Position numbers and translations under genes: made by a program. Under the pieces are notes generated by a model. The model was not told the origin of the DNA, did not search any database, and was given only the letters and a program-made list of their open reading frames with translations. Below are positions 2,497 to 64,000 of a stretch of DNA of 64,000 nt, piece after piece. The DNA comes from Clostridia bacterium (GTDB lineage: Bacteria > Bacillota > Clostridia > HGM11514). The stretch is from contig JAZNAU010000009.1 in assembly GCA_045586685.1 (NCBI GenBank), positions 22,420 to 86,419 of the forward strand. Reading direction: 5' to 3'. Position 1 is the first letter of the stretch, and every line of letters starts with the position of its first letter.

Positions 2497-3621
2497 TCAA
2501 TCTCCCATTAACAAAACCTCTATTTCCTGTAATAGAAACAGAAAAAATTGTTTTCTTTTATCTTCCTGTACGCTAGCACCTACATATAAATCCCCTTGTG
2601 ACATCTGTTCATTTCCGATCAACACCCGTACTGTTCCCACCTTTTGTCCTTTTGTAAAAGGTGCCTTAAGTGATTTTGGCACCTCCACTTCCAAACGATA
2701 ATCAGGATGTTGATTTTGTTTACACACAAAGGATAATTTGTCTTCTGTATAAATTCCCACCGTTTCCTCTGTACCGCCTATGACGGGAAGCTCTTTTACA
2801 AAGCCCTTTTTTGGAATCACTTCCACTGTCTGGTATGAACCAAATGCATTGTCAAGCAGAAGTTTATGATCATTCCAGTCATCAGGTGCATTTAAGGTCA
2901 CTGCTACCACTTGCATTCCGTCCCGAGTGGCTGAAGATACCAAAGCACGACCGGTACTTTTGGTAAACCCTGTTTTGACACCGTCACAGCCCTCATACAT
3001 CCGCAGCATTTTGTTATGATTCACCAGTTTCTTATCATATTCCCTACCGGGCCAAGGAATGTTTCGTTCTCTTGTACTTACAATTTTGCAAAACCACTCA
3101 TTTTCCAATGCATAACAAGCAATCAGTCCCAAATCGTAAGCGGTAGTATAATGCCCTTCCTCCGGCAATCCGTTAGGATTGACAAAATGCGTCTGCGAAG
3201 CCCCAATCGCTTTCGCCTTCTCGTTCATCATACTGCAGAAATTTTCAACCGTTCCTCCCACATACTCAGCCAATGCCACTGCGGCATCGTTTCCGGAATT
3301 TAACATCAACCCGTAAAGGAGATTTTCCACAGTAATGGCCTCCCCTACCTCCAGCCACATGGAAGACCCTTCTACTCCTACCGCATTTTTACCAATTTTC
3401 ACAACTTCATGAAGCTCGGTGTTTTCTAACGTAACAATAGCAGTCATAATTTTTGTAGTACTTGCCATACCAAGTTGCTCATACGCGTTGGATTCAAACA
3501 ACACCTTCCGCGTACCTTGTTCCATTACCACTGCCGACTGCGCCGAATAACAAAATCCTTTTATGGGAATCAGAACTATCAACAGTAAAATCAATAAACT
3601 ATGTTTAAACAGAACAATCAC
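2497..3621 (-). CDS. D-alanyl-D-alanine carboxypeptidase (serine-type, PBP5/DacB-like) with signal peptide
   Basis: 374 aa; hydrophobic N-terminus; SxxK active site ASTTKIMT; SGN motif LNSGND. Confidence 0.8.
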   Translation of the reverse strand: MIVLFKHSLLILLLIVLIPIKGFCYSAQSAVVMEQGTRKVLFESNAYEQLGMASTTKIMTAIVTLENTELHEVVKIGKNAVGVEGSSMWLEVGEAITVENLLYGLMLNSGNDAAVALAEYVGGTVENFCSMMNEKAKAIGASQTHFVNPNGLPEEGHYTTAYDLGLIACYALENEWFCKIVSTRERNIPWPGREYDKKLVNHNKMLRMYEGCDGVKTGFTKSTGRALVSSATRDGMQVVAVTLNAPDDWNDHKLLLDNAFGSYQTVEVIPKKGFVKELPVIGGTEETVGIYTEDKLSFVCKQNQHPDYRLEVEVPKSLKAPFTKGQKVGTVRVLIGNEQMSQGDLYVGASVQEDKRKQFFLFLLQEIEVLLMGD

Positions 3622-3657
3622 CTGCCCTCATTTAAGAATATGAGCAGGTGATGGGGT

Positions 3658-4077
3658 TTATTCTTCTGACTGTTCTTTGTTTCCTTTTTTACTTGTAATA
3701 GCAGAGCTGATTTTCTCTACCGCATCCGGAATATAATCCACCAGCTTGTCAATAGGATTGTCCTGATTGACAGGCATCAGCTTAATCTGATTTTTTCCAA
3801 CAATCATAAATGCTACCGGTTGGATTGAAACTCCTGCACCGCTTCCTCCTCCAAAGAGATTGGTATTATCCGGTGCTTTCACTTTTTCCGGAGTATGAAA
3901 CTCGGATCCGCCTGCCGCAAAGCCAAAGCTTACCTTTGAAATCGGAATAATCACTGTACCATCTGCAGTTTCTACAGGGGAACCTACAATGGTATTCACA
4001 TCTACCATCTCTTTAATGCTTTGCATTGCAGTTGCCATCAAACCCTGAATTGGATGATCAGACATTGTTATAACCAC
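3658..4077 (-). CDS. ytfJ: sporulation protein YtfJ (GerW family)
   Basis: 139 aa; HPIQGLMATAM..VNTIVGSPVETADGTVIIPISKVSFGFAAGGSEF closely resembles B. subtilis YtfJ. Confidence 0.85.
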   Translation of the reverse strand: MVITMSDHPIQGLMATAMQSIKEMVDVNTIVGSPVETADGTVIIPISKVSFGFAAGGSEFHTPEKVKAPDNTNLFGGGSGAGVSIQPVAFMIVGKNQIKLMPVNQDNPIDKLVDYIPDAVEKISSAITSKKGNKEQSEE

Positions 4078-4251
4078 CTTTCTTATCTACAACTCATGTT
4101 TAATATGAGCCAAAATGATGTAATCTATACTTTTATTATACACCAAAAAAAACAAAAGCGCAAGTATATTCTTGAAAAAAATTCCAATCCATGAATAAAC
4201 TTATTTTCTTCTGTCCACAATACAATTATCAATCATAAAGGAGAGGTCGCC

Positions 4252-4521
4252 ATGATTTACGGAAAATCCAGAAATGTAGTAGTTATTCAGAATATTGATT
4301 CAACTTATGTAGAACAAGCCATTCTGATTTTAAAAAAAAATCCGGGAAACAAAGAATTTTACGCCTCTGAGGAGGGCATTGTAAAAGAAGCACAACGCAT
4401 TATTGAACAATATAATCAAAATCAAATGACTCCACCAAACAATAAATTACATCGTTTTTGGGGATATCTGTTAATCGGAGCAACCGCTGTTGTTTCCTGT
4501 ATCTTATATCTGGTTTCTTAA
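4252..4521 (+). CDS. hypothetical small protein with C-terminal transmembrane segment
   Basis: 89 aa ORF with aaggagag RBS 7 nt upstream; followed by hairpin terminator at 4532-4562. Confidence 0.5.
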   Translation: MIYGKSRNVVVIQNIDSTYVEQAILILKKNPGNKEFYASEEGIVKEAQRIIEQYNQNQMTPPNNKLHRFWGYLLIGATAVVSCILYLVS

Positions 4522-4564
4522 ATTATAAAAAAATGAGGTTGTCAAATGACAGCCTCATTTTTAT

Positions 4565-4771
4565 TTAGTGATGTCTGGCAGGCTCCTTTTCTCGGAACAA
4601 CAAGGTAATTGCCCAAAGTCCGGCAAGACCTACCAGAGAGAAGATAATTCTGCTGATTGCAGCTCCCTGACCACCAAACAGAGAACCTACCAAATCGAAT
4701 CCAAACAAACCGATAGATCCCCAGTTCAACGCACCAATAATGATCAACACCAAAGATAAATTATCAAGCAT
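4565..4771 (-). CDS. DUF378 family small membrane protein
   Basis: 68 aa; IGALNWG motif and two transmembrane helices typical of DUF378. Confidence 0.7.
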   Translation of the reverse strand: MLDNLSLVLIIIGALNWGSIGLFGFDLVGSLFGGQGAAISRIIFSLVGLAGLWAITLLFREKEPARHH

Positions 4772-4947
4772 TGCAATATCTCCTTTTCATTGAAACTCTT
4801 TGATTCATAAATCATTATGTGCAATTTTCTAATTTTTATTCAATTTCAGGTATCAAACTAAAAAAATAACAAAATGGTCAACAAAACCAAAGATTGACCG
4901 GCCACCAAATACATAACATCCAATGCTTTCCACATTTTTAAAAAATA

Positions 4948-12952: not shown

Positions 12953-13306
12953 TTACAGGCTTGCTTTTGCAGTTTCAACCAACTTAGCAAAACCTTCAGC
13001 ATCATGAATTGCCAGTTCGGAAAGCATTTTACGGTTCATCACGATACCTGCCTTCTTCAGACCGTTCATAAAAGTAGAGTAGTTCATGCCGTTCATTTTA
13101 GCGGCTGCACTGATACGTGCAATCCACAGCTTTCTGAATTCTCTCTTCTTTTGCTTTCTACCAACATATGCAAAAGCCAAAGATCTCATTACTGCTTGGT
13201 TCGCAATTCTGTATTGCTTTCCTTGAGCGCCTCTGAAACCTTTTGCAAGTTTCAATACTTTCTTATGTCTTTTTCTGGTGGCCATAGCACCTTTTACTCT
13301 TGCCAT
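12953..13306 (-). CDS. rplT: 50S ribosomal protein L20
   Basis: 117 aa [26 protein letters not shown]... Confidence 0.95.
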
Positions 13307-13327
13307 TTTGTTCTCCTCCTATTCGGC

Positions 13328-13525
13328 TTATTTGTAAGGAATCAATTTCTTTACGGTTGCTGCGTTTGCAACACTTGCATAGCCCGGCTTACGCAGACCT
13401 CTTTTTCTCTTGGTGGATTTCTTTGTCAGAATATGACTGCGAAATGCTTTTCCTCTTTTAACTTTACCGGTTTTTGTAAGTGAAAAGCGCTTTGCCGCAC
13501 CTCTGTGAGTTTTAATCTTAGGCAT
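13328..13525 (-). CDS. rpmI: 50S ribosomal protein L35
   Basis: 65 aa [14 protein letters not shown]... Confidence 0.95.
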
Positions 13526-21226: not shown

Positions 21227-22657
21227 TTATTTTTGTGTTGCCTTCCACTCAGCATACTGACGTTCAATTTCGTCTTTTACGATCTGAGCACCAGCAAGCT
21301 CTCTCTTATCCCAATGTTTCTGGTAGGTTCCTTCGATATCCTCTACCACACCTCTTTTTAATCCGGTGGTATACTCTGTTACAGAATTCAAATTTGTAAT
21401 TTCTGTTTCTACAGGAGCAGTATCAAATACAAAACCAACATTTTCATCAACCGGTGCTTCTCTGTTCAGACGGTCTGTTTCTTCCCATACGCCTTCTTCA
21501 TAGCCGGGCATTAAGTAAGCAAGCAACTGATTTCCGATTCTGAATTCAGGAATATGATAACCATTTCCTTCGGTAGGTGTAATTCTGTTTCCGTCCTTGG
21601 TGTAGTTTACACCCTCAATTCCGTAAGCCAACAGGTTAAACAGATATTGGTCGGTGGTTACCAGTTCCAAAAGTTTTAATGCACGAACAGGATTTTTTGA
21701 TACACGGTTGATAGCAGTCAATGCACTTTGCATTTCATTTCTTCTTAAAATCATGTCACTGGTAGGTACTGCAATAACATCCCAATCATAGGAAATTGCG
21801 TGTTTTGCTTCTGCACCGGGCAAATGACGGTTATAACGAGAGAACAGTTTTCCTGCCTTCAAATAAGGATTTTCATCAAATACAACGTCCTGAGTAGTAA
21901 TTGCTTTTTCATACCAACGTCTTGCAACGTAATATTGAGGTAACAGTTCTTCCCGTCTGTCGGTTACTTCACCGTCTACAATACAGAAACCGCCCTTGAC
22001 AGGAGTCATGTTTACATCAAACTGGTTGAGTGTCATGCCGCTAATCATCTGCATACCAGGTTCGTTTGGTTTAACTACGTCATAGATTGCTTCCATATCT
22101 TCGTAAGAAGAAATTGATTTTACTTCATCTACCAGATCATATTTTTCAACTTCGTCCTTTTTAAACCATAAACCGCACTGGTGATACATAACCTGATACA
22201 TGGGAACTGCAAAAATCTGGTCATTTAATGTTAATGCATCCCAATACATTTCGTCAAAATAGTCATAAAGTTCGGGAGTTTCGGTTTTCAGAATTTCTGA
22301 CAAATCATAATAAGCACCCTTAAGAGCGTTGCCTTCATACGGATTCTGCCAGTTGGATGTGAACATCAAATCCCAAGAATCATCCTGAGCTGCCATCATC
22401 ATGCTTGTTTTTTGACCAAAATCACCAGGTTGGATAAACTGAATTTCCAAGGTTGCATTGATTTTTTCCAGCAAATACTTATTTACTTCTTCGATTACTT
22501 CATCGTATCCCGCCGGTTCGTCCAGAGCGATAGCCCATACCAGGTTTACCTGTTTGCTCATATCGTCCTGACTTGCTGTTTGCTTTGTTTCTCCGCAGGC
22601 ACAAACGGAAAGTGCCAGCAGTGCTGCCATTGCCATGGCTAACATTCTTTTTACCAT
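21227..22657 (-). CDS. ABC transporter extracellular solute-binding lipoprotein (orphan, no adjacent permease/ATPase)
   Basis: 476 aa; signal plus lipobox LALSVCAC; SBP family 1-like composition. Confidence 0.7.
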   Translation of the reverse strand: MVKRMLAMAMAALLALSVCACGETKQTASQDDMSKQVNLVWAIALDEPAGYDEVIEEVNKYLLEKINATLEIQFIQPGDFGQKTSMMMAAQDDSWDLMFTSNWQNPYEGNALKGAYYDLSEILKTETPELYDYFDEMYWDALTLNDQIFAVPMYQVMYHQCGLWFKKDEVEKYDLVDEVKSISSYEDMEAIYDVVKPNEPGMQMISGMTLNQFDVNMTPVKGGFCIVDGEVTDRREELLPQYYVARRWYEKAITTQDVVFDENPYLKAGKLFSRYNRHLPGAEAKHAISYDWDVIAVPTSDMILRRNEMQSALTAINRVSKNPVRALKLLELVTTDQYLFNLLAYGIEGVNYTKDGNRITPTEGNGYHIPEFRIGNQLLAYLMPGYEEGVWEETDRLNREAPVDENVGFVFDTAPVETEITNLNSVTEYTTGLKRGVVEDIEGTYQKHWDKRELAGAQIVKDEIERQYAEWKATQK

Positions 22658-23122: not shown

Positions 23123-25630
23123 TTAGGAAATATCTGCAATCAATTCGCGAATCATAAATTCGTCATCTGCAGAAATCAGCTCGGTTTCTGCACTGATTAC
23201 GATCAAGCCTCTGTTATCCCAGAACACATTTTTACCAAGGGATTCTGCAATCGCACGCAGAGGAATCACCGTTCTGTCATTTAAGGTCTGAGCAGGAACA
23301 TCCAATTCGGTTACTGTTCCGTTCACATTCATTTCCTTGCTGTTAATCTTGAGAGTAATTGTGTTGCTTCCCATGGTAATGGTAACGGTTTCAGTTGCTC
23401 CGTCCCAACCTACATTTGCACCAAAGGATTCTGCGATGAAACGTACAGGAACTAAAGTTCTGTCATTTAATACCACAGGCTGAACTGCTTCGTTTGCAGG
23501 GTCAACCATGGTCTTATTTCCCATTGCAATCGCTTTGGGAGAACCAATCAACAGAGTCACCGCTTTTGATTCTACTGTTTCAACTACATCATCCAGCAAT
23601 CCAATCTTTTCAAAAGGAATAGGTTCAAAATCAGGCAACTTTGTGAAGATTTCACTGTCTTCTTTCAATGTAAAGTCTTTGTTTTTGTAATCAACAAAGC
23701 CCTTGGTATTAGAGATGTCAATATTATTTTTAAAGGTACCGTTATCCATTGCCACCTGATCAATTTTATAGCCTGGAGATTTATACTGTACATTGTTACG
23801 GATAATGTTACCCATGGGTTTTTCGGGGCTGTTTTCCAGAACGTTTGTTAACAAGGGATACTTTTCAGCCCAAATGCCTTCTTTATAAGGAACGTTCATT
23901 AAGTTCTGATAAATTTCGGAACCTTTTCCGGTATCCATCCAGCTCATACCACGGCTGTCCAGACGGAACGCCTGAGCACATTCCAGCATCAGGTTGTTTT
24001 CAAAAACATTGTCACGTCCGCCGCCCACCAGTGCAATCTGAGAGATCTTATACATAACGTTTCCATATACATGGGTGGAAGAATGCATATCATCCAAGTA
24101 CACCCCTGCTGCGGTCATACCGGTGTTGGTATCCATGAGAGTAACATCATGTAAATAGTTATAACGAATTACATTTCCTCTTTGAGTCCAGTCACGGCCG
24201 GTATAGATCATACCCTGGTCAGCAGTATTCTGACAAACAAAGCCGATATCGTTATATTCAATTATGTTGTCATTTCCTCTATAGAAAATAGCTTGTGCTG
24301 CACCGTATGCAATCTTGTTATGAGCAATTCTTGTACCAACGCTCTGGTTAATGTGGATTGCAGTATTAGCTCCATTAGAATCATACAACTGGAACCGTTC
24401 AATGGTGTTATTGATGATTTCGTTATTACCGGAGGTCAGTGTAATTCTGTCACCGCCCTGAAAATGAATGGCACCGCATCCCAGGTCATGGAAATAGTTA
24501 CTGCGGATTTCTGTGTTGGTACCTGTTCCGCGGACTGCAGTATCGGTAATCAAAGAAAATTCACAGTTATTGATACTTACATTGTCTACCTCATTTAATT
24601 CAATTCCGTAATTTAAGTTCTTGGTAAAGTGAATTCCGGAAATGGTAACATTCTTAGCCTTATCAACCTTAATAAAAGGTTTGTCGCTGGTTACCAGTGC
24701 AATCTGATTGGAAGAAGTAATTTCCTTTTCAGAGTACAAATACAGGATTCCATTTTCCCGATCCAAGTACCATTCACCGGGAGCATCCAATTCTTCAAGC
24801 AGGTTATAGAAATAAAAACGCTGATTTTGGGCTACACTGTAGTAAGCCGGAAATTCAGATTTAATAATGTTTTTGTTATCAAAGTCAATTTGAACGACAA
24901 AGCTCTGTCTGTGCCAGTCGTGCATCCAATAACCTTCAACGTAAAATTCGCTGTTAGCAGTCCACTTATTCAGACGGCTATCGGTTGTACGAATCTGAAA
25001 TCCTTCCAGATTTTTCAAAGGTGCTGTCATGTTTCGAGGATCAGAACCTTGTTTTATTACTTCATCAATATTCAGATAGCCCTCATTGGGATATCTTGCA
25101 ATCGTCTGCAATTTGCCATCTACATACAGCATTGCAGTGTTACTTTCCGCAACTGTCTTTTGAGAACCGTCTTCTAATGTTTCATAGGAAGTATATCCCA
25201 CTACACCGTAATCGGTAATGCCATTTGCCTTCAGGTCAGCAGCATAAATTTTATCTTTTGCATTTTTGGTTACAATTCTGTCCAAAATGGCAGTATCGGT
25301 TACTTTTTTAAACCAGCTGCTATCCAGCTCATTTGTACCTGTTACCGCTACTTTTTCGTCGCCATAAGCACGAATGGTAAGTCCGTTATGTTTTTGGGTT
25401 AAGGTGACAGTATCTTTAATCAGATAATTGCCTTCTCTTAAGTAAATAGTCGCTTGCTTTCCTTCTGCCAGTTCAACTGCTTTTGCCAAAGTTGCCAAGG
25501 GCGCATCAGCAGAGCCGACAGCAGAATCACTTCCCGTTGGTGCAACATAATACACTGCATCTGCAGCCAAAACAGGGGCACACAAGGAGGTGATCAATAA
25601 AACACATAGTAATAATGCTATTTTTTTCAT
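23123..25630 (-). CDS. secreted right-handed parallel beta-helix protein with two C-terminal copper-amine-oxidase N-terminal-like (stalk) domains
   Basis: 835 aa; signal peptide MKKIALLLCVLLITSLCAPVLA; YYVAPTGSDS..G N-terminal motif; repeated NN.I/NN beta-helix rungs; C-terminal repeats PVRFIAESFGANVGWD and PLRAIAESLGKNVFWD. Confidence 0.7.
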   Translation of the reverse strand: MKKIALLLCVLLITSLCAPVLAADAVYYVAPTGSDSAVGSADAPLATLAKAVELAEGKQATIYLREGNYLIKDTVTLTQKHNGLTIRAYGDEKVAVTGTNELDSSWFKKVTDTAILDRIVTKNAKDKIYAADLKANGITDYGVVGYTSYETLEDGSQKTVAESNTAMLYVDGKLQTIARYPNEGYLNIDEVIKQGSDPRNMTAPLKNLEGFQIRTTDSRLNKWTANSEFYVEGYWMHDWHRQSFVVQIDFDNKNIIKSEFPAYYSVAQNQRFYFYNLLEELDAPGEWYLDRENGILYLYSEKEITSSNQIALVTSDKPFIKVDKAKNVTISGIHFTKNLNYGIELNEVDNVSINNCEFSLITDTAVRGTGTNTEIRSNYFHDLGCGAIHFQGGDRITLTSGNNEIINNTIERFQLYDSNGANTAIHINQSVGTRIAHNKIAYGAAQAIFYRGNDNIIEYNDIGFVCQNTADQGMIYTGRDWTQRGNVIRYNYLHDVTLMDTNTGMTAAGVYLDDMHSSTHVYGNVMYKISQIALVGGGRDNVFENNLMLECAQAFRLDSRGMSWMDTGKGSEIYQNLMNVPYKEGIWAEKYPLLTNVLENSPEKPMGNIIRNNVQYKSPGYKIDQVAMDNGTFKNNIDISNTKGFVDYKNKDFTLKEDSEIFTKLPDFEPIPFEKIGLLDDVVETVESKAVTLLIGSPKAIAMGNKTMVDPANEAVQPVVLNDRTLVPVRFIAESFGANVGWDGATETVTITMGSNTITLKINSKEMNVNGTVTELDVPAQTLNDRTVIPLRAIAESLGKNVFWDNRGLIVISAETELISADDEFMIRELIADIS

Positions 25631-36758: not shown

Positions 36759-37024
36759 AACGGTTCCTCCTCTGTAGGATTTTCTATCTTGGACAAAAAA
36801 TCACGTCCGGATGCCGCATCTTTGTAGTCAAAATTAACCCCTATATACTATTATACACAAAATTTTGAAAAAGTAAATGGTTTTTTTGGTTTTTTTTCAT
36901 AGCTAAATGTGAAAAAAATACTTGCTATTTTTGGTTAAATTGTATAAAATAATATGTATGAACTATTTTTTCTCTAAATTTTCATGAATATTTTTTATTT
37001 TTATACATAGAAAGGATGATTGGT

Positions 37025-38356
37025 ATGAATTTTATGCAAAAAGGATGTCATGTTCATTTTGTGGGTATTGGCGGAATCAGCATGAGTGCATTGGCAAATA
37101 TTTTAAAAAGCAATCAAGTAAAGGTAACGGGCTCTGACATTTCCGAGTCTGATATGGTCAAGAAGTTAAAGAAAAGCGGAATCAGTGTAGACGTCCCCCA
37201 TCAGATAAACGAAATAAAAAATGCGGATTTGGTTGTCTATACCGCAGCCATCGCAAAAGACAACTGCGAACTTCTCTATGCAAAAGAACAAAAGATTCCC
37301 TGCTGGGAACGACCTGTCATGCTTGGTAAAATCATGGCACATTATCCGATTTCTATGGGTGTGTCCGGTACTCACGGCAAAACCACTGTGACCAGTATGC
37401 TGTCCCACATTCTGTTACGGGCTGAACTTGACCCTACCTTGCTGGTGGGCGGAGAGTTGCCGGACATCGATGGCAATCTAAAGATAGGACAAAGTGATTA
37501 TTTTGTCACGGAAGCCTGTGAATATGTAGATAGCTTTCTGAATTTTTATCCCACAATCTCCTTTATTTTAAATATTGAAGAGGATCATCTGGATTATTTC
37601 TCCGGTCTTGAACAGATTAAACAATCTTTTCGTCAGTATGCAAAGCAAACCACCGGTACGGTCATTGCTTGCGGAGAGGATGAAAATATTCAATCTGCCC
37701 TTGAAGGAATCCCCTTTGTCTCCTTTGGTGCCGGATGTGATTATGAAGCCAGAAATATTAAAACCGGAGACAAAACTGACTATACACTCTATCGCAAAGG
37801 AAATCCGGTATGTCCTGTTTCCCTGTCTGTTCCAGGAATACACAATGTAAATAATTCTTTAGCGGCATTGGCGGGAGCTGATGTGTTAGGAATCCCCTTA
37901 GAGGAAGCTGCATCCTATTTAGAAGATTTTACCGGCGCAAAACGTCGCTTTGAATACAAGGGTAGCAAAAACGGAATTGATGTGTACGACGATTATGCTC
38001 ATCATCCCACAGAAATTGAGGCAACCTTAAAAGCACTCAAACAAAAAAACTATAATACGATATGGTGTATCTTTCAACCTCACACCTATACCAGAACAAA
38101 AGCATTGTTTCAAGAGTTCATCACGGCTCTTTCTAAAGCAGAAAAATTGATTCTTACGGATATTTACGCTGCAAGAGAGCCGGATACAGGTCTGGTCCAT
38201 TCTGCCCAGTTGGCAGAACAAATTCCCGGTGCAGTTTACCTTTCTACATTTTCGGAAGTAAAGGAATATCTGGAACAAAATGCAAAGCCGGGGGATATGA
38301 TTATGACCATTGGCGCAGGTACCGTCTATCAGGCGGGGGAATTGTTTTTAAAATAG
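37025..38356 (+). CDS. murC: UDP-N-acetylmuramate--L-alanine ligase
   Basis: HVHFVGIGGISMSALA..GTHGKTTVTSM Mur ligase motifs; start at second ATG (37025) about 8 nt after AAAGGA; the ORF-track start is 37016. Confidence 0.85.
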   Translation: MNFMQKGCHVHFVGIGGISMSALANILKSNQVKVTGSDISESDMVKKLKKSGISVDVPHQINEIKNADLVVYTAAIAKDNCELLYAKEQKIPCWERPVMLGKIMAHYPISMGVSGTHGKTTVTSMLSHILLRAELDPTLLVGGELPDIDGNLKIGQSDYFVTEACEYVDSFLNFYPTISFILNIEEDHLDYFSGLEQIKQSFRQYAKQTTGTVIACGEDENIQSALEGIPFVSFGAGCDYEARNIKTGDKTDYTLYRKGNPVCPVSLSVPGIHNVNNSLAALAGADVLGIPLEEAASYLEDFTGAKRRFEYKGSKNGIDVYDDYAHHPTEIEATLKALKQKNYNTIWCIFQPHTYTRTKALFQEFITALSKAEKLILTDIYAAREPDTGLVHSAQLAEQIPGAVYLSTFSEVKEYLEQNAKPGDMIMTIGAGTVYQAGELFLK

Positions 38357-38433
38357 TCACCTTTTCCAACTCTGTTCATATTATAATAGTGAACATCCTT
38401 TTGATGTATCACTATTACAAAGGAGAATCTGTT

Positions 38434-38586
38434 ATGTGTTGCCGCAGAAGAAACCATCTCACTTTTGACTGTGAACAGTGGAAGCAAAGCCGAAGAACAA
38501 CGCCCCCTATGGACGTTTTTAACGGACAAAATCAAAACAATCATTGCGGTTGCAATAACAACTGCAGATGCGGTTGTTGTTGTTAA
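38434..38586 (+). CDS. 50-aa cysteine-rich, N/Q-rich small peptide (MCCRRRNHLTFDCEQWKQSRRTTPPMDVFNGQNQNNHCGCNNNCRCGCCC), function unknown
   Basis: AGGAGA RBS 7 nt upstream of ATG 38434; perfect hairpin terminator 38592-38626 immediately downstream; 10 Cys, 7 of them in the last 13 residues. Confidence 0.5.
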   Translation: MCCRRRNHLTFDCEQWKQSRRTTPPMDVFNGQNQNNHCGCNNNCRCGCCC

Positions 38587-38591
38587 TTGCA

Positions 38592-38626
38592 AAAAATCCC
38601 TCGAAGTTTTTTCGAGGGATTTTTTA
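38592..38626 (+). terminator. rho-independent terminator after the Cys-rich peptide gene
   Basis: aaatccctcgaa-gtttt-ttcgagggattt + ttt. Confidence 0.7.
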
Positions 38627-38707
38627 GGTAAAATCAACATCTGTCAAAGCCCGTTTCGTTGCTGACACACATCCGCTTTTTTGGACGAAAAGCCATAAGA
38701 AAACGCA

Positions 38708-39139
38708 TCAATCTCTGTTTGTTCGCTCTGTTGTAAGTGTGTTGTTCTTTCTAAAAATAATTTTACTTGCAATATAATTTAATAATATTACCAGGATATT
38801 CACCAGCAGCTTCATCATTCTCGCTTCGTAATGCAACAAATCCACTGTAATATACATAACCAGCAGATCCATTAACCCCGTAGCACCCCGGCATCCGGTA
38901 AAGGATACAAATTCTCTGACTGTTAATTTTAAATTCCAATCCTTGCTTTCAAACACATACCTTTTATTGGTCGCAAAAGCAAACAGAACGGCACCCGCCC
39001 AGGCAAGCACATTACTGATAATAGTTCCTGCCTCTAACTTATAATAAAGCCATTCAAACAAAATGAGATTTACCATGGTTGTGCCTACGCCAAACAGCAT
39101 GTATAAAAGCAGCATTTTTATTTTTTTACGATTCATCAT
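38708..39139 (-). CDS. GtrA family membrane protein
   Basis: 143 aa; 4 transmembrane segments, GtrA-like pattern (FxxVGxxxxxxNxxxF...). Confidence 0.6.
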   Translation of the reverse strand: MMNRKKIKMLLLYMLFGVGTTMVNLILFEWLYYKLEAGTIISNVLAWAGAVLFAFATNKRYVFESKDWNLKLTVREFVSFTGCRGATGLMDLLVMYITVDLLHYEARMMKLLVNILVILLNYIASKIIFRKNNTLTTERTNRD

Positions 39140-39140
39140 A

Positions 39141-40157
39141 TCACAAATCCAATTTTAAATCATTTTGTCTGATCCATTTTACCTTACGCAAAGGATAAGC
39201 AATAATGGGAGTGAGTACAGCGGGAAGAACAAAACAAATTAACACCATACCAATCATACTGAACAAGTCGGTATGACCTGCCGCCAGAACACCGATGGGT
39301 CCCACCAGACCGCAGGTTCCCATACCGGAGGCAACTGCAATTCCGTTTTCCATTTTAAATAGGCAAGTTGCCATAGGTCCTGTAATGGCAGAAACCAAAA
39401 TGGGCGGAATCCAGATACGGGGATTCCTCATAATATTCCCCATTTGAAGCATAGACGTACCCAACCCTTGGGCAATAATGCCGCCAAATCCATTTTCTTT
39501 AAAGCTCATTACCGCAAAGCCCACCATCTGTGCACAACAGCCCGCCGTCGCCGCACCGCCTGCTAAGCCCACTAATCCCAGAGAGGCACAAATGGCTGCA
39601 GAGCTTATGGGAAGAGTTAATGCAATACCCACCAGCACAGAAACCAAAATTCCCATTAACAACGGCTGTAATTCTGTACAGGTCATAATTAAATTTCCTG
39701 CAGCAGTCATAATTTTGGCAATCCAAGGACCTGTCAGCAGACTCATTGCCGTACCGGATGCAATCACCACAGTAGGAGTAACAATAATATCAATCTTCGT
39801 TGTTTTATAAAACAGTTTTCCAAGTTCCGTTGCAACAACTACTGCACAAAACACCCCAAGGGGGCCTCCTAAAGAATTGGCTCCGTACCCTACCGCGCAC
39901 ATGGAAAGAAGAACCAACGGAGGTGCTTCCAAAGCAGAGGCAACCGCGATTGCCATTGCAGGGCCCTGTGCTGCAACTGCATATTCCTTCATGGTTGCAA
40001 AAAACTCGATTCCTGTTTTGTCATAAATGGTTCCGAATATGGTACCTATCAACAACGAGGCAAATAACCCCATTGCCATTGCACCCAATGCATCAATAAA
40101 ATAACGTTTAAAAGAAATTTCGATTTTCTTTTGTTTTAAAAATCCTGCCATATTCAT
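39141..40157 (-). CDS. PTS EIIC-like polytopic membrane protein (PfoR / COG3641-type)
   Basis: 338 aa; about 10 transmembrane segments, Gly/Ala-rich EIIC-like segments; no EIIA/EIIB nearby. Confidence 0.45.
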   Translation of the reverse strand: MNMAGFLKQKKIEISFKRYFIDALGAMAMGLFASLLIGTIFGTIYDKTGIEFFATMKEYAVAAQGPAMAIAVASALEAPPLVLLSMCAVGYGANSLGGPLGVFCAVVVATELGKLFYKTTKIDIIVTPTVVIASGTAMSLLTGPWIAKIMTAAGNLIMTCTELQPLLMGILVSVLVGIALTLPISSAAICASLGLVGLAGGAATAGCCAQMVGFAVMSFKENGFGGIIAQGLGTSMLQMGNIMRNPRIWIPPILVSAITGPMATCLFKMENGIAVASGMGTCGLVGPIGVLAAGHTDLFSMIGMVLICFVLPAVLTPIIAYPLRKVKWIRQNDLKLDL

Positions 40158-45135: not shown

Positions 45136-45493
45136 GGGCATAGCCCTATCCTCTACTGGCTACGCACAAGTGTGTTTTTTTGTTGGCTTGCCCAACCATG
45201 GAATTGCTACTTGTTCCCCATAAATGGGCTGTACGGCTCTATCAAGGGGTCCAGGGGCGAAGCCCCTGTGTCGTTTTAAGGGGTGCGGGGGAAATCGAAA
45301 TCCCCCGCGTTTTTGCTACTTTTGTCGCACAAAAGTAGGCCCGCCCGGCAGGGCATACAAAACAAAAAGTCTGAACAACACCTCCCTGTTTTGTACACTG
45401 AAAAACAAAAGTAAATTTCTCGTTTTGATGAATTACTTATATTCTTTACATCTATTCTGTTTCATTTTTGTTTATGGAAACAGGCTGATTCCG

Positions 45494-45904
45494 CTACGGA
45501 ATCAGCCTGTCGCTTTCAATCAATAAAATTCTCTCAATAGGAATCTCTGTTTCATCCTCCATCACAATCAACCCTTCAAATTGCAAGAGCTTCTTTACGT
45601 TTCCCGAAAAAGTCTGGTATGCACCACCCGGCTTTTTTTCATCGGGTACAAAATAGGTGATGGTCACCTGCGGTTTTTCATCAAGGTGCTCCTGCAAATA
45701 AAGAAGCTTTCTGTTAAGCTCTTCCAGTTCATAGTCGTCTAACTCCACATACCCCTCTGTCAGTCTGGCAGTTTCTTTTACCGCCTCATCATGACCGGTC
45801 AGAGCGGCAAATGGAGCAAATTGAGCCGCACGGTCCGATACAGACATCCTTTTTCTGGTTTTAGATTGATGATGGGGTAAATGAATAATATCATCGTATT
45901 CCAT
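45494..45904 (-). CDS. YolD-like protein (accessory partner of Y-family polymerase)
   Basis: 136 aa; directly downstream of the Y-family polymerase gene; conserved-looking motif ..RAAQFAPFAAL.G. Confidence 0.6.
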   Translation of the reverse strand: MEYDDIIHLPHHQSKTRKRMSVSDRAAQFAPFAALTGHDEAVKETARLTEGYVELDDYELEELNRKLLYLQEHLDEKPQVTITYFVPDEKKPGGAYQTFSGNVKKLLQFEGLIVMEDETEIPIERILLIESDRLIP

Positions 45905-60556: not shown

Positions 60557-61168
60557 ATGTTGTTAAAACAGTTGACAGTAGGAGATTTTAGCACCAATTG
60601 TTATCTGGTGTGGGATGAAGAAAGTCTGGAAGGATATGTGATCGATCCCGGAGCCGAAGGGGACAGAATCGTAAGTGAAATCAAAAGGTTCTCTATAAAT
60701 GTAAAAGGAATTTTACTCACTCATGGTCATCTGGACCATTTTGAGGCGGTGGACGTAGTTGCCTCAAAGACAGGTGCACCAGTGCTGATGCACCGTGCCG
60801 ACCATGACCAATATACTCAGATTCCTTCTTTTTTCGGTACTGTAAAGCCACCAGAAACAAAAATTTCAGAATTTCTGGTTCATGGTATGGAACTGAAAAC
60901 GAAACATTTAGTGTTAACAATATTGGAAACACCGGGACATACGCCGGGCGGAATCAGTATTTACGATGGAAAGAGTGCGGTATTTTGCGGTGACTCCCTC
61001 TTTTGGAGAAGTGTGGGAAGATGCGATTTGCCGGGAGGCAACTGGGAAACCCTGTCTCAATCCATTCAAACTGTTCTGTACACATTACCGGAGGATACCC
61101 AAATTTACTGCGGTCACGGTCCGGCTACTACAATCGGCGAAGAAAGGAAGAATAACCCTTACGTATGA
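60557..61168 (+). CDS. MBL-fold metallo-hydrolase
   Basis: 203 aa; THGHLDH motif. Confidence 0.8.
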   Translation: MLLKQLTVGDFSTNCYLVWDEESLEGYVIDPGAEGDRIVSEIKRFSINVKGILLTHGHLDHFEAVDVVASKTGAPVLMHRADHDQYTQIPSFFGTVKPPETKISEFLVHGMELKTKHLVLTILETPGHTPGGISIYDGKSAVFCGDSLFWRSVGRCDLPGGNWETLSQSIQTVLYTLPEDTQIYCGHGPATTIGEERKNNPYV

Positions 61169-62349
61169 TACAGGAAAAAGAAGCAAAACTGCCTTGGGGC
61201 AGATTAACGGGGATTCGTCCCGTAAAACGGGCAAATGTGTTTTTATCTCAAGGCTATAGCCCCCAAGAGGCAGAAGAACTGTTTCACCGTGAGTTTGGAG
61301 CAGACAAAGCCCGTTCCAAACGAGCAGTCGAAATTGCCATGCGTGAAAACAAACTGCTTGAACAAGCATATTCTGACGGAATTGGGCTTTATATCGGGAT
61401 TCCCTTTTGTCCATCCCGCTGTGTCTATTGCTCTTTCATCTCCTTTTCGGTGGAAAAATCGGCTCAGCTTATGGAACCCTACTTAACTGCACTGGAGCAG
61501 GAAATAAAAGCAGGAGCAGAAATTGTGAAAAATCTGGGGAAACGGATTGAAACGGTGTATATAGGAGGAGGCACCCCTACTACCCTGTCAGCAGACCAAT
61601 TAAACCGTTTGCTGGAGGTTTTGCACCAAGAATTTGATTTATCTGATATCAAAGAATTTACTGTTGAAGCAGGAAGACCCGACACGATTTCGGCAGACAA
61701 GCTTTGGGTGATGAAACAATGGGGCGTAACCCGTATCAGCTTAAATCCCCAAAGTATGAATCAGAAAATACTGGATAAAATAGGAAGAAAGCACAGTCCG
61801 GAAGAATTGATTTCCGCCTTTCAACTGGCACGGGAGCGAGGCTTTACGCATATAAATATGGATGTGATTGCAGGATTACCGGACGAGACCTATCCCGAAT
61901 TTTGTCATACGATGGAAGAGCTTTTCAAACTCGACCCTGAGGGGATTACGGTGCACACCATGTCGCTAAAGCGTGCGGCGGTGCTGACACAAAATGCAGA
62001 ACAATACGATTTAACCGCACAGGAAACTGTGGGAAACATGTTGGATTTTGCTTGGGAGCAGTTAGCAATTCGAGGATATCATCCCTATTATCTGTATCGT
62101 CAGAAAAACATTCTGGGAGGGTTTGAAAACACCGGTTTTTCAAAGTCAGGGAAGGAATGTCTTTATAATATTTACATCATGGAGGAAACCCAATCTATTC
62201 TGTCCTTGGGAGCAGGTGGCTCTACCAAAATTGTTGATGGGGACAGGATTGAACGGATTTTCAATGTGAAAGAACCAACAGAATACATCAATCGGATTGA
62301 CGAAATGATAGAAAGAAAGCAAGAAATTTATACGATTTTAGGAGGTTGA
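61165..62349 (+). CDS. radical SAM protein of the HemN/HemW/HemZ (oxygen-independent coproporphyrinogen oxidase-like) family
   Basis: 394 aa; CxxxCxxC (CPSRCVYCSF) after an about 80-aa N-terminal extension; HemN-C-like tail. Confidence 0.7.
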   Translation: MIQEKEAKLPWGRLTGIRPVKRANVFLSQGYSPQEAEELFHREFGADKARSKRAVEIAMRENKLLEQAYSDGIGLYIGIPFCPSRCVYCSFISFSVEKSAQLMEPYLTALEQEIKAGAEIVKNLGKRIETVYIGGGTPTTLSADQLNRLLEVLHQEFDLSDIKEFTVEAGRPDTISADKLWVMKQWGVTRISLNPQSMNQKILDKIGRKHSPEELISAFQLARERGFTHINMDVIAGLPDETYPEFCHTMEELFKLDPEGITVHTMSLKRAAVLTQNAEQYDLTAQETVGNMLDFAWEQLAIRGYHPYYLYRQKNILGGFENTGFSKSGKECLYNIYIMEETQSILSLGAGGSTKIVDGDRIERIFNVKEPTEYINRIDEMIERKQEIYTILGG

Positions 62350-62737: not shown

Positions 62738-63082
62738 ATGAACAGGGTTCTTTTGTGCGGAGTGTGTGTGGGTGCGGTGTTGAGCTTACTTGGGGAGGAG
62801 TGTGCCTCCGTTACTCTCCTGACCGCCTCTGACGGTTCTGTCAAACAAAAAGTAACCCTTGATTGTTGCGAAAATGCACAGTCTATTTTGAAACGGGACG
62901 GACTCTGCTATCAGGCACAGGCATCCTTTACGGCGGAATCGGGTGTTACCCTTTCTGGCTGTGCTCATTTATTGGAGCAATCGCCTGCATTGGTCACTTT
63001 TCTGATGCAAAACATAGCCCGCCATCTGACAGACGAAGGGGTATCGGTATCTTTTTCTGTTACGGAATCGGATTTTGGTTGA
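62738..63082 (+). CDS. hypothetical protein
   Basis: 114 aa ORF in operon position after the zinc-ribbon gene; no recognisable motif. Confidence 0.4.
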   Translation: MNRVLLCGVCVGAVLSLLGEECASVTLLTASDGSVKQKVTLDCCENAQSILKRDGLCYQAQASFTAESGVTLSGCAHLLEQSPALVTFLMQNIARHLTDEGVSVSFSVTESDFG

Positions 63083-63087
63083 TTTCA

Positions 63088-63132
63088 TAAAACAAAAAGA
63101 CCATCTAAAAGCATCTGCTTTCGGATGGCTTT
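63088..63132. terminator. bidirectional terminator between convergent genes
   Basis: ccatc-taaaagcatctgctttc-ggatgg flanked by A-run and T-run. Confidence 0.6.
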
Positions 63133-63136
63133 TTTA

Positions 63137-63319
63137 TTACTGTTTTTCATCAGAAGGAGGCACTGTAACCGTATCAAGAGTCGCCCGCAAATTTCGGCGC
63201 ACATCTGCCACATACTGCTCCCGCAATACCTTTTGTTCCGCTTTTTCTGCCTCTGTCAAACCTTCTGTCCGTGCTTTTTTTGCCAGTTCATTGATTCTAT
63301 CAATTTGTTTTTGTTCCAT
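63137..63319 (-). CDS. DUF896 (UPF0291, YnzC-like) small protein
   Basis: 60 aa; ..RINELAKKARTEGLTEAEKAEQ..LR.EY resembles B. subtilis YnzC. Confidence 0.7.
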   Translation of the reverse strand: MEQKQIDRINELAKKARTEGLTEAEKAEQKVLREQYVADVRRNLRATLDTVTVPPSDEKQ

Positions 63320-63330
63320 ATTTCTTCTCC

Positions 63331-64000
63331 TTATCGTAATTCACAAATGGTAACGCCCGACTCCCCTTCTCCGTACCGTCCCAGACGAAAGGAGGCAACC
63401 CGCTTATCCGTTTTTAAGGCTTGGGAAATGCCTGCTCTCAATGCACCTGTCCCTTTTCCGTGAATGATAGTAACCTGACTCAAAGACGCCAACACCGCCT
63501 GATCCAAAAATCGCTCTACCTCCAACAAGGCATCTTCAAGCAACATTCCTCTTACATCCACCTCGGTTGCTGCTGAAACATTGGACCGTTTCACCCCTGC
63601 AGTGGCACGGGTTTTTACACCGTCTCGGGTCACGGTGGTCTGCCCTTCCTTCAAGCTTAAGCCTGACAGTTCCACGTGCATCTTCATCAGTCCTACCTGC
63701 ACCTGTACCCGACCGTCAGAAGAGGGCAATGCTAAAACGGTGCCTGTTTGCCCAAGCTCCGCAACCTCCACCGTCGTTCCGATTTTCAAATCCGAGGCTT
63801 TCACGCCCTTTGCTTTTACAAGAGAGGATACGGCTTGTGTCTTTTTTACCGATTCATTCAGCTTGGTTTTCACCTCAACCATTTTCTTTTGGAGACCTAT
63901 CTTTCCTACCTGAGCATGAAGTGCCTTGACTTCCTCTAACAAAGCATCGCTTTCCCGTTTTGCCTCCAGCACAATTTCCCGTGCTTGTTGTCTTGCTTTT
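63331..64000 (-). CDS. mutS2: endonuclease MutS2, C-terminal part (gene continues beyond window end)
   Basis: C-terminal Smr domain (VDVRGM..IIHGKGTGALR) preceded by a coiled-coil; ORF is open to the window edge. Confidence 0.8.
   Translation of the reverse strand, partial: KARQQAREIVLEAKRESDALLEEVKALHAQVGKIGLQKKMVEVKTKLNESVKKTQAVSSLVKAKGVKASDLKIGTTVEVAELGQTGTVLALPSSDGRVQVQVGLMKMHVELSGLSLKEGQTTVTRDGVKTRATAGVKRSNVSAATEVDVRGMLLEDALLEVERFLDQAVLASLSQVTIIHGKGTGALRAGISQALKTDKRVASFRLGRYGEGESGVTICELR

Follow-up and report, generated by a model that had tools for sequence, protein, structure and literature searches.

A cysteine-rich micro-protein family encoded behind murC in an uncultured lineage of gut Clostridia, with a candidate role at the spore surface

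Directly behind murC, on a contig from an uncultured gut Clostridia bacterium (JAZNAU010000009.1, assembly GCA_045586685.1), lies an open reading frame (ORF) of 50 sense codons whose product would contain 10 Cys residues, seven of them among the last 13. The stretch analysed, positions 22,420 to 86,419 of that contig, is 64,000 nucleotides long and is called the window below. A sequence-only reading of the window had described the ORF in exactly these terms, taking it for a genuine stand-alone mini-gene and naming four candidates for its product: a metallothionein-like peptide, a redox peptide, the precursor of a ribosomally synthesised and post-translationally modified peptide (RiPP) or a small sporulation protein. 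The locus thus raises two questions, namely whether the ORF is a gene and, if so, what so small and Cys-dense a protein might do. As a lone ORF of 50 codons is within chance expectation, many ORFs of this size arising by chance, it is conservation that decides the first. On that basis the mini-gene is almost certainly a real protein-coding gene.

A conserved coding gene behind murC

The coding region, its two parts and the flanking transcription units are as follows.

37016..38356, plus strand: murC (UDP-N-acetylmuramate--L-alanine ligase), immediately 5′ of the mini-gene, stop codon TAG at 38354-38356
38434-38583, plus strand: ORF of 50 sense codons, ATG at 38434, stop codon TAA at 38584-38586
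38434..38529, plus strand: conserved basic N-terminal module (N-module), codons 1-32, MCCRRRNHLTFDCEQWKQSRRTTPPMDVFNGQ, recognised from alignment A2, substitution ratios and a hidden Markov model (HMM)
38530..38586, plus strand: hypervariable Cys/Asn/Gly tail, codons 33-50 and the stop, NQNNHCGCNNNCRCGCCC, recognised from alignment A2
38708-40157, minus strand: convergent gtrA-like/EIIC operon, 3′ of the mini-gene terminator

MurC was used as an anchor, and syntenic DNA was drawn from GTDB species genomes and, via MurC homologues, from contigs of NCBI, ENA and Logan. Counting the window, eight distinct lineages carry a homologous ORF directly behind murC and in the same orientation. They are given here with the identity of their MurC to that of the window and the length of their ORF.

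Window: reference MurC, ORF of 50 aa
L081: MurC 93% identical, ORF of 50 aa
L082/L083: MurC 78%, ORF of 58 aa
L087: MurC 78%, ORF of 64 aa
L086: MurC 76%, ORF of 60 aa
L084/L085: MurC 74%, ORF of 48 aa
L090-L097: MurC 64%, ORF of 86 aa
L003: MurC 64%, ORF of 115 aa

Non-synonymous (pN) and synonymous (pS) differences were counted by the Nei-Gojobori method for all pairs over an ungapped core of 20 codons. In the frame that reads MCC, pS is 0.90 (saturated) and pN 0.26, giving a pN/pS of 0.29, against 0.50-1.80 in the five other frames. Pairwise differences at the first, second and third codon positions of the core number 203, 142 and 300, and the closest pair, the window and L081, differ by 4 synonymous changes versus 1 non-synonymous change. 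This pattern points to purifying selection on the core, in the MCC frame only. An HMM of the N-module, built from the six closer members only and searched against 20,123 six-frame ORFs from all loci (944 kb), recovered L090 and L003 at E = 2.2e-5 and 2.9e-5, with an Arg-rich fragment as the next-best match (E = 0.011). A pairwise BLASTP comparison of the window peptide with that of L003 is not significant (E 0.24-0.5). Because the HMM scores these distant members, their homology is supported independently of synteny alone.

The ATG, the Shine-Dalgarno sequence (SD) and the stop codon are conserved across the eight diverged copies. The proposal of a genuine stand-alone mini-gene is thus borne out by eight syntenic homologues, by purifying selection and by a conserved layout of promoter, SD and terminator. 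The opposite case that the sequence-only reading had named, a locus at which the terminator alone is conserved, is the reverse of what is found: the ORF is conserved and the terminators are unrelated in sequence. Other frames were considered and rejected. A longer form of 65 aa, starting at a GTG at 38389, is interrupted by in-frame upstream stops in L086 and L084, and neither its start nor an SD for it is conserved. An overlapping ORF of 66 aa in the +1 frame and an antisense ORF of 103 aa both have a pN/pS of at least 0.5, and each crosses the promoter or the terminator.

The window product, MCCRRRNHLTFDCEQWKQSRRTTPPMDVFNGQNQNNHCGCNNNCRCGCCC, consists of two dissimilar parts. The N-module, of about 33 aa, has the pattern MCC..RRN..C.QWK.SRRTTP.MD[VI]F.GQ, which in alignment A2 becomes MCC-x(1-10)-RRN-x(3-5)-C-[EQK]-x-[WF]-[KR]-x-[SC]-RR-x4-M-[DN]-[VI]-[FY]-x-[GA]-Q. 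In the window it carries W16, F11, F29 and H8, and the tail is free of aromatic residues. The tails of the eight members, 15-75 aa long, cannot be aligned beyond CxC and CGC motifs; what they share is composition, being almost only Cys with Asn, Gly, Asp, Arg and Ser, arranged in CxC, CGC and CC motifs. Cys makes up 19-24% of the whole protein across the family and 20-39% of the tails. Tandem repeats of 6 and 12 nt occur in frame in the tails of L087 and L003, for example (TGCGAT)x3.7 in L087, which is read as CDCDCD. Such repeats would explain, at least partly, the hypervariability of the tail.

The family is missing from current protein catalogues, as the sequence-only reading had expected of an ORF that annotation pipelines miss. 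The window peptide has no match in Pfam or NCBIfam at E <= 10. At the same threshold its seven relatives match no NCBIfam family, and their sole Pfam match is the unrelated 17kDa_Anti_2 (E 0.088, L090 member). A phmmer search of the PDB returned nothing relevant, and one of 1.84 billion cluster representatives with the window peptide gave 0 matches. The exact 50-aa and 65-aa forms are absent from a collection of 15 billion proteins, and a word-indexed search of 5.8 billion protein clusters found no relative of either the window peptide or the 115-aa homologue of L003. A peptide scan of GTDB species genomes and a tblastn search of plasmids and phages were empty, and JGI metagenomes and IMG/VR, scanned by alignment, gave pattern matches of which none was confirmed. 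The lineage is probably absent from the JGI set, since close MurC relatives came only from NCBI, ENA and Logan. Gene calls exist over the ORF in four relatives, and each of them is in the wrong frame or on the wrong strand.

L081, 5305-5568, minus strand: ORF of 87 aa on the strand opposite to the mini-gene
L082, 5417-5692, plus strand: ORF of 91 aa on the same strand as the mini-gene in a different frame, crossing the terminator
L083, 4357-4632, plus strand: ORF of 91 aa, same strand, different frame, crossing the terminator
L086, 5465-5695, plus strand: ORF of 76 aa, same strand, different frame, crossing the terminator

The previously unannotated family is new, and its kind, be it that of lineage-specific sigma-K-driven Cys-rich spore proteins or that of metallothionein-like peptides, is known.

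In gene order the window reads pth(-), prs(-), spoVG(-), murC(+), the mini-gene(+), gtrA-like(-), PTS-EIIC-like(-), nth(+) and iorA(+). Only murC and spoVG are conserved as neighbours in the eight lineages. The mini-gene is followed by the gtrA-like gene in the window, by an uncharacterised gene of 452 aa, with gtrA beyond it, in L081, by glmS in L082, by nth and iorA in L084, by a tRNA in L086 and by fucose isomerase in L090 and L003. The 452-aa gene of L081 (5648-7006, minus strand), which separates the terminator of the mini-gene from the gtrA-like gene, has no recorded Pfam match and is absent from the window. An exact look-up of the neighbouring GtrA protein gave no recorded gene position.

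Signals for transcription and translation

How might the mini-gene be expressed? Five elements surround its coding region.

38357..38361, plus strand: −35-like element TCACC, fitting the sigma-K KCACM, 1 nt past the murC stop TAG
38376..38385, plus strand: −10-like element TCATATTATA, for which sigma-K has the consensus GCATANNNTA; the AC of the −35 lies 16 nt before it
38393..38407, plus strand: short hairpin ACAUC-CUUUU-GAUGU, about 7 nt past the −10 box
38420..38427, plus strand: SD AAGGAGAA, with a 6-nt spacer to the ATG
38591..38625, no strand assigned: intrinsic terminator, a perfect 15-bp inverted repeat with the loop GTTTT, starting four bases past the stop

The first two elements resemble a promoter for sigma-K, whose B. 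subtilis consensus is KCACM at −35 and GCATANNNTA at −10 (PMC3416734); the window −10 is identical to that of the spoVFB sigma-K promoter in the table of the same paper. In the window and its closest relative the −35-like box starts 1-2 nt past the murC stop. The box is found in 8/8 family members as TCACC, GAACC or TAACC, and a −10-like box CATANNNTA is kept in 7/8, 15-17 nt beyond it, with its inner three bases varying among members (CATACTATA, CATATCATA, CATAAGATA, CATAGAATA, CATATAATA). The motif is thus retained in the eight copies, and the neighbouring intergenic sequence diverges. When the regular expression K[AC]ACM-N15-17-CATANNNTA was run over both strands of the 64-kb window (128 kb), the mini-gene site was the only match on either strand; a first-order Markov model predicts 0.64 random matches for the relaxed pattern and 0.19 for the strict one.

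Scanned for generic sigma-70 promoters, the interval from murC to the ATG has none on the plus strand. The other sporulation sigma factors were considered through their B. subtilis consensus sequences: TYATATTT and KCATANANTN for sigma-E, GNATA and CAWAMTA for sigma-G, and GTATA and GGNAANAMTR for sigma-F, each given as −35 and −10 (PMC3416734). They were rejected, as by eye no GNATA, GTATA or TYATATTT stands at the right spacing. From these matches it seems somewhat probable that the mini-gene is expressed in sporulation from a sigma-K promoter.

Beyond the −10 box, the hairpin at 38393-38407 was compared in seven sequences, where 97% of cells are paired and two A-U pairs are G-C pairs in L086 and L084 through changes in both arms; the hairpin that L090 and L003 carry at this position is a different and stronger one. 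This is suggestive of a conserved hairpin downstream of the −10. If the promoter assignment is right, it would be a 5′-terminal stem-loop with a presumed role in stabilising the mRNA; in Bacillus, mRNA stability is raised both by such stem-loops and by a strong SD. A metal-repressor operator at this inverted repeat was considered and rejected, the repeat covarying like an RNA stem and lacking operator-like conservation. In the 5′ untranslated regions of L081, L082, L086 and L087, between the first hairpin and the ATG, there is a second small hairpin, absent from the window copy, in which CUCUU(U) pairs with the AAGGAG of the SD; in read-through transcripts the SD might thereby be masked.

The AGGAGA that the sequence-only reading had placed 7 nt before the ATG is at 38421-38426, with the ATG at 38434. 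The arrangement AAGGAGAA-N6-ATG is identical in the six closer members, and L090 and L003 have AAAAGGGG instead. That reading had also seen a perfect terminator hairpin right after the stop, which stands, with a stem of 12 bp, which does not: the inverted repeat measures 15 bp, its arms being AAAAAATCCCTCGAA (38591-38605) and TTCGAGGGATTTTTT (38611-38625). The stretch 38580-38640 folds at -21.6 kcal/mol (z = -5.3), and 0/200 shuffles fold as well. An A-run precedes the hairpin and a T-run follows it, and the genes on either side converge. Because of these runs and of the convergent flanking genes, the terminator may serve both units, and it is probably bidirectional and common to the mini-gene and the gtrA-like/EIIC operon. 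A terminator-like hairpin directly follows the stop in every family member.

Candidate functions of the peptide

What, then, might the protein do? The function favoured here, tentatively and by analogy, is that of a late mother-cell Cys-rich micro-protein of the spore surface (coat or exosporium), which may act in cross-linking or in metal binding. The sigma-K RNA polymerase would transcribe the mini-gene late in the mother cell, possibly besides read-through from murC, and the 5′ stem-loop and strong SD would stabilise the short transcript. The peptide would be deposited on the developing spore, with the conserved basic N-module as its docking part, and the tail, rich in thiols, would be joined by disulphide bonds to other Cys-rich coat or exosporium proteins, bind metal ions as thiolate clusters or do both. 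Tail length would vary via slippage of the short in-frame repeats. Among the four candidates of the sequence-only reading, the small sporulation protein has gained the most support, from the conserved sigma-K-type promoter.

Genes elsewhere in the window support a sporulating lifestyle, and do not prove it.

3658-4077, minus strand: GerW/YtfJ sporulation gene (TIGR02874, 177 bits versus a cut-off of 116)
2497-4077, minus strand: the pair formed by gerW and the Peptidase_S11 D-Ala-D-Ala carboxypeptidase gene that follows it

SpoVG is also encoded in the window. Upstream of gerW (4078-4160) stands GTATA-N18-CATATTA, which by eye is of the forespore sigma-G/F type (consensus of PMC3416734) and suggests that the promoter logic of Bacillus sporulation applies in this organism.

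Two further small ORFs were seen beside murC in other loci. In L098 (MurC 58%), an ORF right after murC, at 4468-4545 and running to the contig end, begins MAKNQLVPEAKEALERFKMEAASEVG and resembles an alpha/beta-type small acid-soluble spore protein, so that the murC 3′ flank presumably hosts small sporulation-type genes in several Clostridia lineages. In L031, another mini-gene (about 4671-4811, minus strand) lies divergent from and just upstream of murC. Starting at GTG, it specifies a 46-aa product, MNNCGCGFGNNSCLWIILIHILVCCCCGNNNGIGNGCGCNNGCGCD, which is hydrophobic in the middle and rich in Cys, Gly and Asn at its ends; the gene has a sigma-K-like TAACA-N16-CATACTATA, a GGAGG SD and a strong terminator of its own. 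The product has no NCBIfam or Pfam match, but resembles the tiny YjcZ-type sporulation proteins.

A number of points weigh against the favoured reading. As regards expression, the −10 of L084 is CATACCTTG, the −35/−10 spacing is 18 in L090 and L003, and the sigma-K assignment would stand or fall with the match to the B. subtilis consensus. The conserved hairpin has an ordinary folding energy (z about -1) and comprises 5 bp in seven sequences. No terminator lies between murC and the mini-gene; read-through from murC is possible, and vegetative co-transcription could be the main mode of expression. Spore formation itself is deduced from three genes only. As regards the protein, no similarity to known coat or exosporium proteins was found in Pfam, NCBIfam or the PDB. 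AlphaFold2, run on the single sequence, gave a predicted local distance difference test score (pLDDT) of 48, with a short low-confidence helix at residues 13-22 as the sole predicted element.

The distribution of the gene adds to these points. It is absent after murC in L088/L089 and L100 (MurC 80%), where murC is directly followed by a glycoside-hydrolase-like gene or a terminator, and in every locus with a MurC of <= 60% identity (L004-L007, L098). In L001 (MurC 91%) the intergenic sequence is about 80% identical through the SD, after which unrelated sequence stands in place of the coding part. That contig stops about 200 nt past murC, and its state may reflect an assembly break, a replacement or a loss. 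The gene is confined to a single lineage of uncultured gut Clostridia, where it is dispensable. The replacing sequence of L001 (3089-3293) holds a 9-bp hairpin (AGACCGTTC-ACA-GAACGGTCT) and an ORF of 17-20 aa that lacks Cys.

Several other functions have to be weighed against that of a spore-surface protein. A metallothionein-like nature of the tail is possible, and the peptide could be a cytoplasmic metal buffer with no specific link to sporulation, binding Zn, Cu, Cd or Ni through the tail, the N-terminal CC and Cys13, and expressed with murC or on metal stress; this seems unlikely. The six shorter members, with 20-24% Cys, CxC/CGC/CC motifs and an aromatic-free tail, resemble small fungal Cu-metallothioneins such as the 25-residue protein of Neurospora, GDCGCSGASSCNCGSGCSCSNCGSK; the ligand-free peptide is predicted to lack structure, and the open passage from murC would allow constitutive co-transcription. 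Against a metal buffer, no Pfam metallothionein or NCBIfam model matches even at E <= 10, and the best-conserved part is the basic, aromatic-containing N-module, the Cys positions of the tail not being conserved. Moreover, none of the lineages has a gene for a metal sensor (ArsR/SmtB, CsoR or CopY type) nearby, the inverted repeat past the −10 covaries as an RNA stem would and not as an operator, and the conserved promoter is of the sigma-K and not the sigma-A type.

A further scheme, quite unlikely in our view, would make the product a sporulation-specific micro-protein of the metallothionein type in anaerobic Firmicutes, whose N-module docks a hypervariable, slippage-prone metal-thiolate tail in the spore surface. 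If it were true, the tail could load or sequester Zn, Cu, Ni or Fe-S fragments, or serve as a sacrificial thiol shield against the oxygen that the spore of an anaerobe meets. No metallothionein is known to have been characterised in Clostridia, and none is known to be tied to spore morphogenesis.

It is improbable that the peptide is a RiPP precursor, in which a 33-residue leader would precede a Cys-rich core, cleavage would occur after F-x-G-Q and remote maturases would install thioether, thiazole or thioamide groups. The alignment does show a conserved leader with a hypervariable core and a conserved G-Q at the junction of module and tail, and Cys-rich cores are common among RiPPs. The eight lineages, by contrast, keep only murC and spoVG, on the murC side, and differ in all downstream genes, and low-complexity tails of 15-75 aa are unusual for enzyme-templated cores. 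No SCIFF or other NCBIfam precursor model matches any of the eight members, as the sequence-only reading had foreseen for SCIFF. Its observation of no adjacent maturase also stands, none being found among the murC, spoVG, gtrA-like, EIIC, nth and iorA neighbours. No maturase (YcaO, LanM/LanB, MNIO or SPASM radical-SAM), peptidase or ABC exporter occurs in the 50 larger window ORFs scanned, where the only radical-SAM enzyme found is HemZ (TIGR03994, 535 bits; 61165-62349), 23 kb away; no radical-SAM/SPASM gene is called within 4 kb in L081, L082, L084, L086 or L090. With no maturase conserved near any of the eight copies, the RiPP candidate of the sequence-only reading has lost ground.

More improbable is a role in the supply of peptidoglycan precursors, in which the peptide would be a small protein that partners or regulates MurC or cortex synthesis. 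The mini-gene is linked to murC in 8/8 lineages while the downstream neighbours change, and Vasudevan and colleagues are reported to have found in 2007 that sigma-K controls the accumulation of cortex peptidoglycan precursors in B. subtilis. This linkage could be trivial, since a −35 box 1 nt past the murC stop makes the two genes hard to separate; relatives with a MurC 80-91% identical lack the peptide, and a hypervariable low-complexity tail is unexpected in a specific enzyme partner.

It is barely credible that the ORF is non-functional, whether as a chance ORF in the murC 3′ untranslated region or terminator or as a Cys-codon attenuator leader peptide: a sub-threshold Rfam match to His_leader (29 bits versus a gathering score of 49), covering the final third of the ORF together with the terminator, would favour the latter, but it is attributed mainly to the terminator hairpin, which is included in the Rfam matches, all of them sub-threshold. 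A pN/pS of 0.29 is confined to the MCC frame, the start, SD and stop persist in eight diverged copies whose homology the HMM E-values support, and no same-strand operon lies downstream in most lineages, with no same-strand gene following in the window, L081, L082, L090 or L003 and the one that follows in L084 and L086 having its own sigma-70-like TTGACA and TATAAT, read by eye.

Whatever the function, the locus provides a concrete, checkable family of conserved bacterial micro-proteins, and a natural tail-length series in which thiol density can be tested against spore-layer cross-linking or metal binding. Its scope is narrow, being one uncultured lineage of gut Clostridia in which some close relatives dispense with the gene.

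Elsewhere in the window, two ORFs have no match in either Pfam or NCBIfam (45224-45526 and 62738-63082, both plus strand) and two have none in NCBIfam (63075-63353 and 13004-13483, both plus strand), all four being within 92-159 aa. At 23123-25630 (minus strand) is encoded an 835-aa protein with right-handed beta-helix repeats and a C-terminal Cu_amine_oxidN1 domain, which is probably a surface-associated, polysaccharide-active protein.

Comparison with known systems

Metallothioneins (SmtA/BmtA/PmtA, MymT and the small fungal Cu-metallothioneins) share with the family small size, about 20% or more Cys, the CxC/CC/CGC motifs, a Cys tail free of aromatics and predicted disorder without a ligand. 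The family differs from them in a basic N-module in which Trp, Phe and His are conserved, in tail Cys positions that are not, in matching no metallothionein family model, and in combining a sporulation-type promoter with the absence of a nearby metal-sensor gene. By the usual marks of a metallothionein it is thus a small Cys-dense protein, without the family-model match or the scarcity of aromatics.

SCIFF ranthipeptide precursors are likewise Clostridial, about 45-50 aa long and Cys-rich at the C-terminus, with a conserved N-terminal part. In contrast to the mini-gene, SCIFF loci have an adjacent radical-SAM/SPASM maturase as their hallmark and a highly conserved core, where the tail of the mini-family varies in length and sequence; the SCIFF model in NCBIfam (TIGR03973) is not matched. 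In terms of RiPPs at large, a conserved leader and variable core are present, and a co-localised enzyme, protease or exporter is not.

CotD of Bacillus is a sigma-K-dependent inner-coat protein of about 75 aa, His/Pro-rich and with His and Cys clusters at both ends. The family is unlike it in being Cys/Asn/Gly-rich and has no relevant Pfam match, the comparison being made by a Pfam scan and by composition. CotY, CotZ and ExsY of Bacillus and CsxA and CsxC of C. sporogenes are also Cys-rich late sporulation proteins and are thought to act in disulphide stabilisation. They differ in being folded and in forming 2D or 3D crystalline lattices, CsxA and CsxC with DUF3794/SPOCS domains. The window peptide, too small and of too low complexity for a lattice scaffold, would be an accessory cross-linker at most.

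The closest parallels are cdeC and cdeM of C. difficile, which are monocistronic, controlled by sigma-K and encode proteins of 405 and 161 aa with 9% and 8.7% Cys (PMC6101409). CdeC has the basic N-terminal motif KKNKRR and a C-terminal Cys cluster, CdeM has RREA repeats, and cdeM is species-restricted and flanked by housekeeping genes (PMC6101409). Both proteins are proposed to cross-link layers of the spore surface. The mini-family is much smaller (48-115 aa), richer in Cys (19-24%) and shows no detectable sequence similarity to them, and localisation and sigma-K dependence, experimentally supported for CdeC and CdeM, are presumed for the mini-gene. The likeness is one of organisation: a monocistronic gene with a sigma-K-type promoter, housekeeping neighbours and a narrow lineage, encoding a protein of high Cys content with no conserved domains, a basic motif near the N-terminus and Cys clusters towards the C-terminus. 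Monocistrony and the promoter type are here seen in a consensus site that is unique in the window and kept in 8/8 members, and in private terminators. Homology to known members of the sigma-K-dependent, Cys-rich spore-surface class is not found in the three databases searched (Pfam, NCBIfam, PDB); that class is defined by function, and its members are mutually unrelated in sequence (PMC6101409; bioRxiv 10.64898/2026.09.03.749163). Cys-rich, disulphide-stabilised layers recur in spore envelopes (bioRxiv 10.64898/2026.09.03.749163), and it is because the features of the mini-gene match those of cdeM and cdeC, and this principle, that a late mother-cell protein deposited on the spore is suggested. 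How robust the spores of gut Clostridia are and how they interact with the host is determined by lineage-specific Cys-rich proteins of the spore surface, and to these the family would, if the sporulation reading is true, be a very small and very Cys-dense addition.

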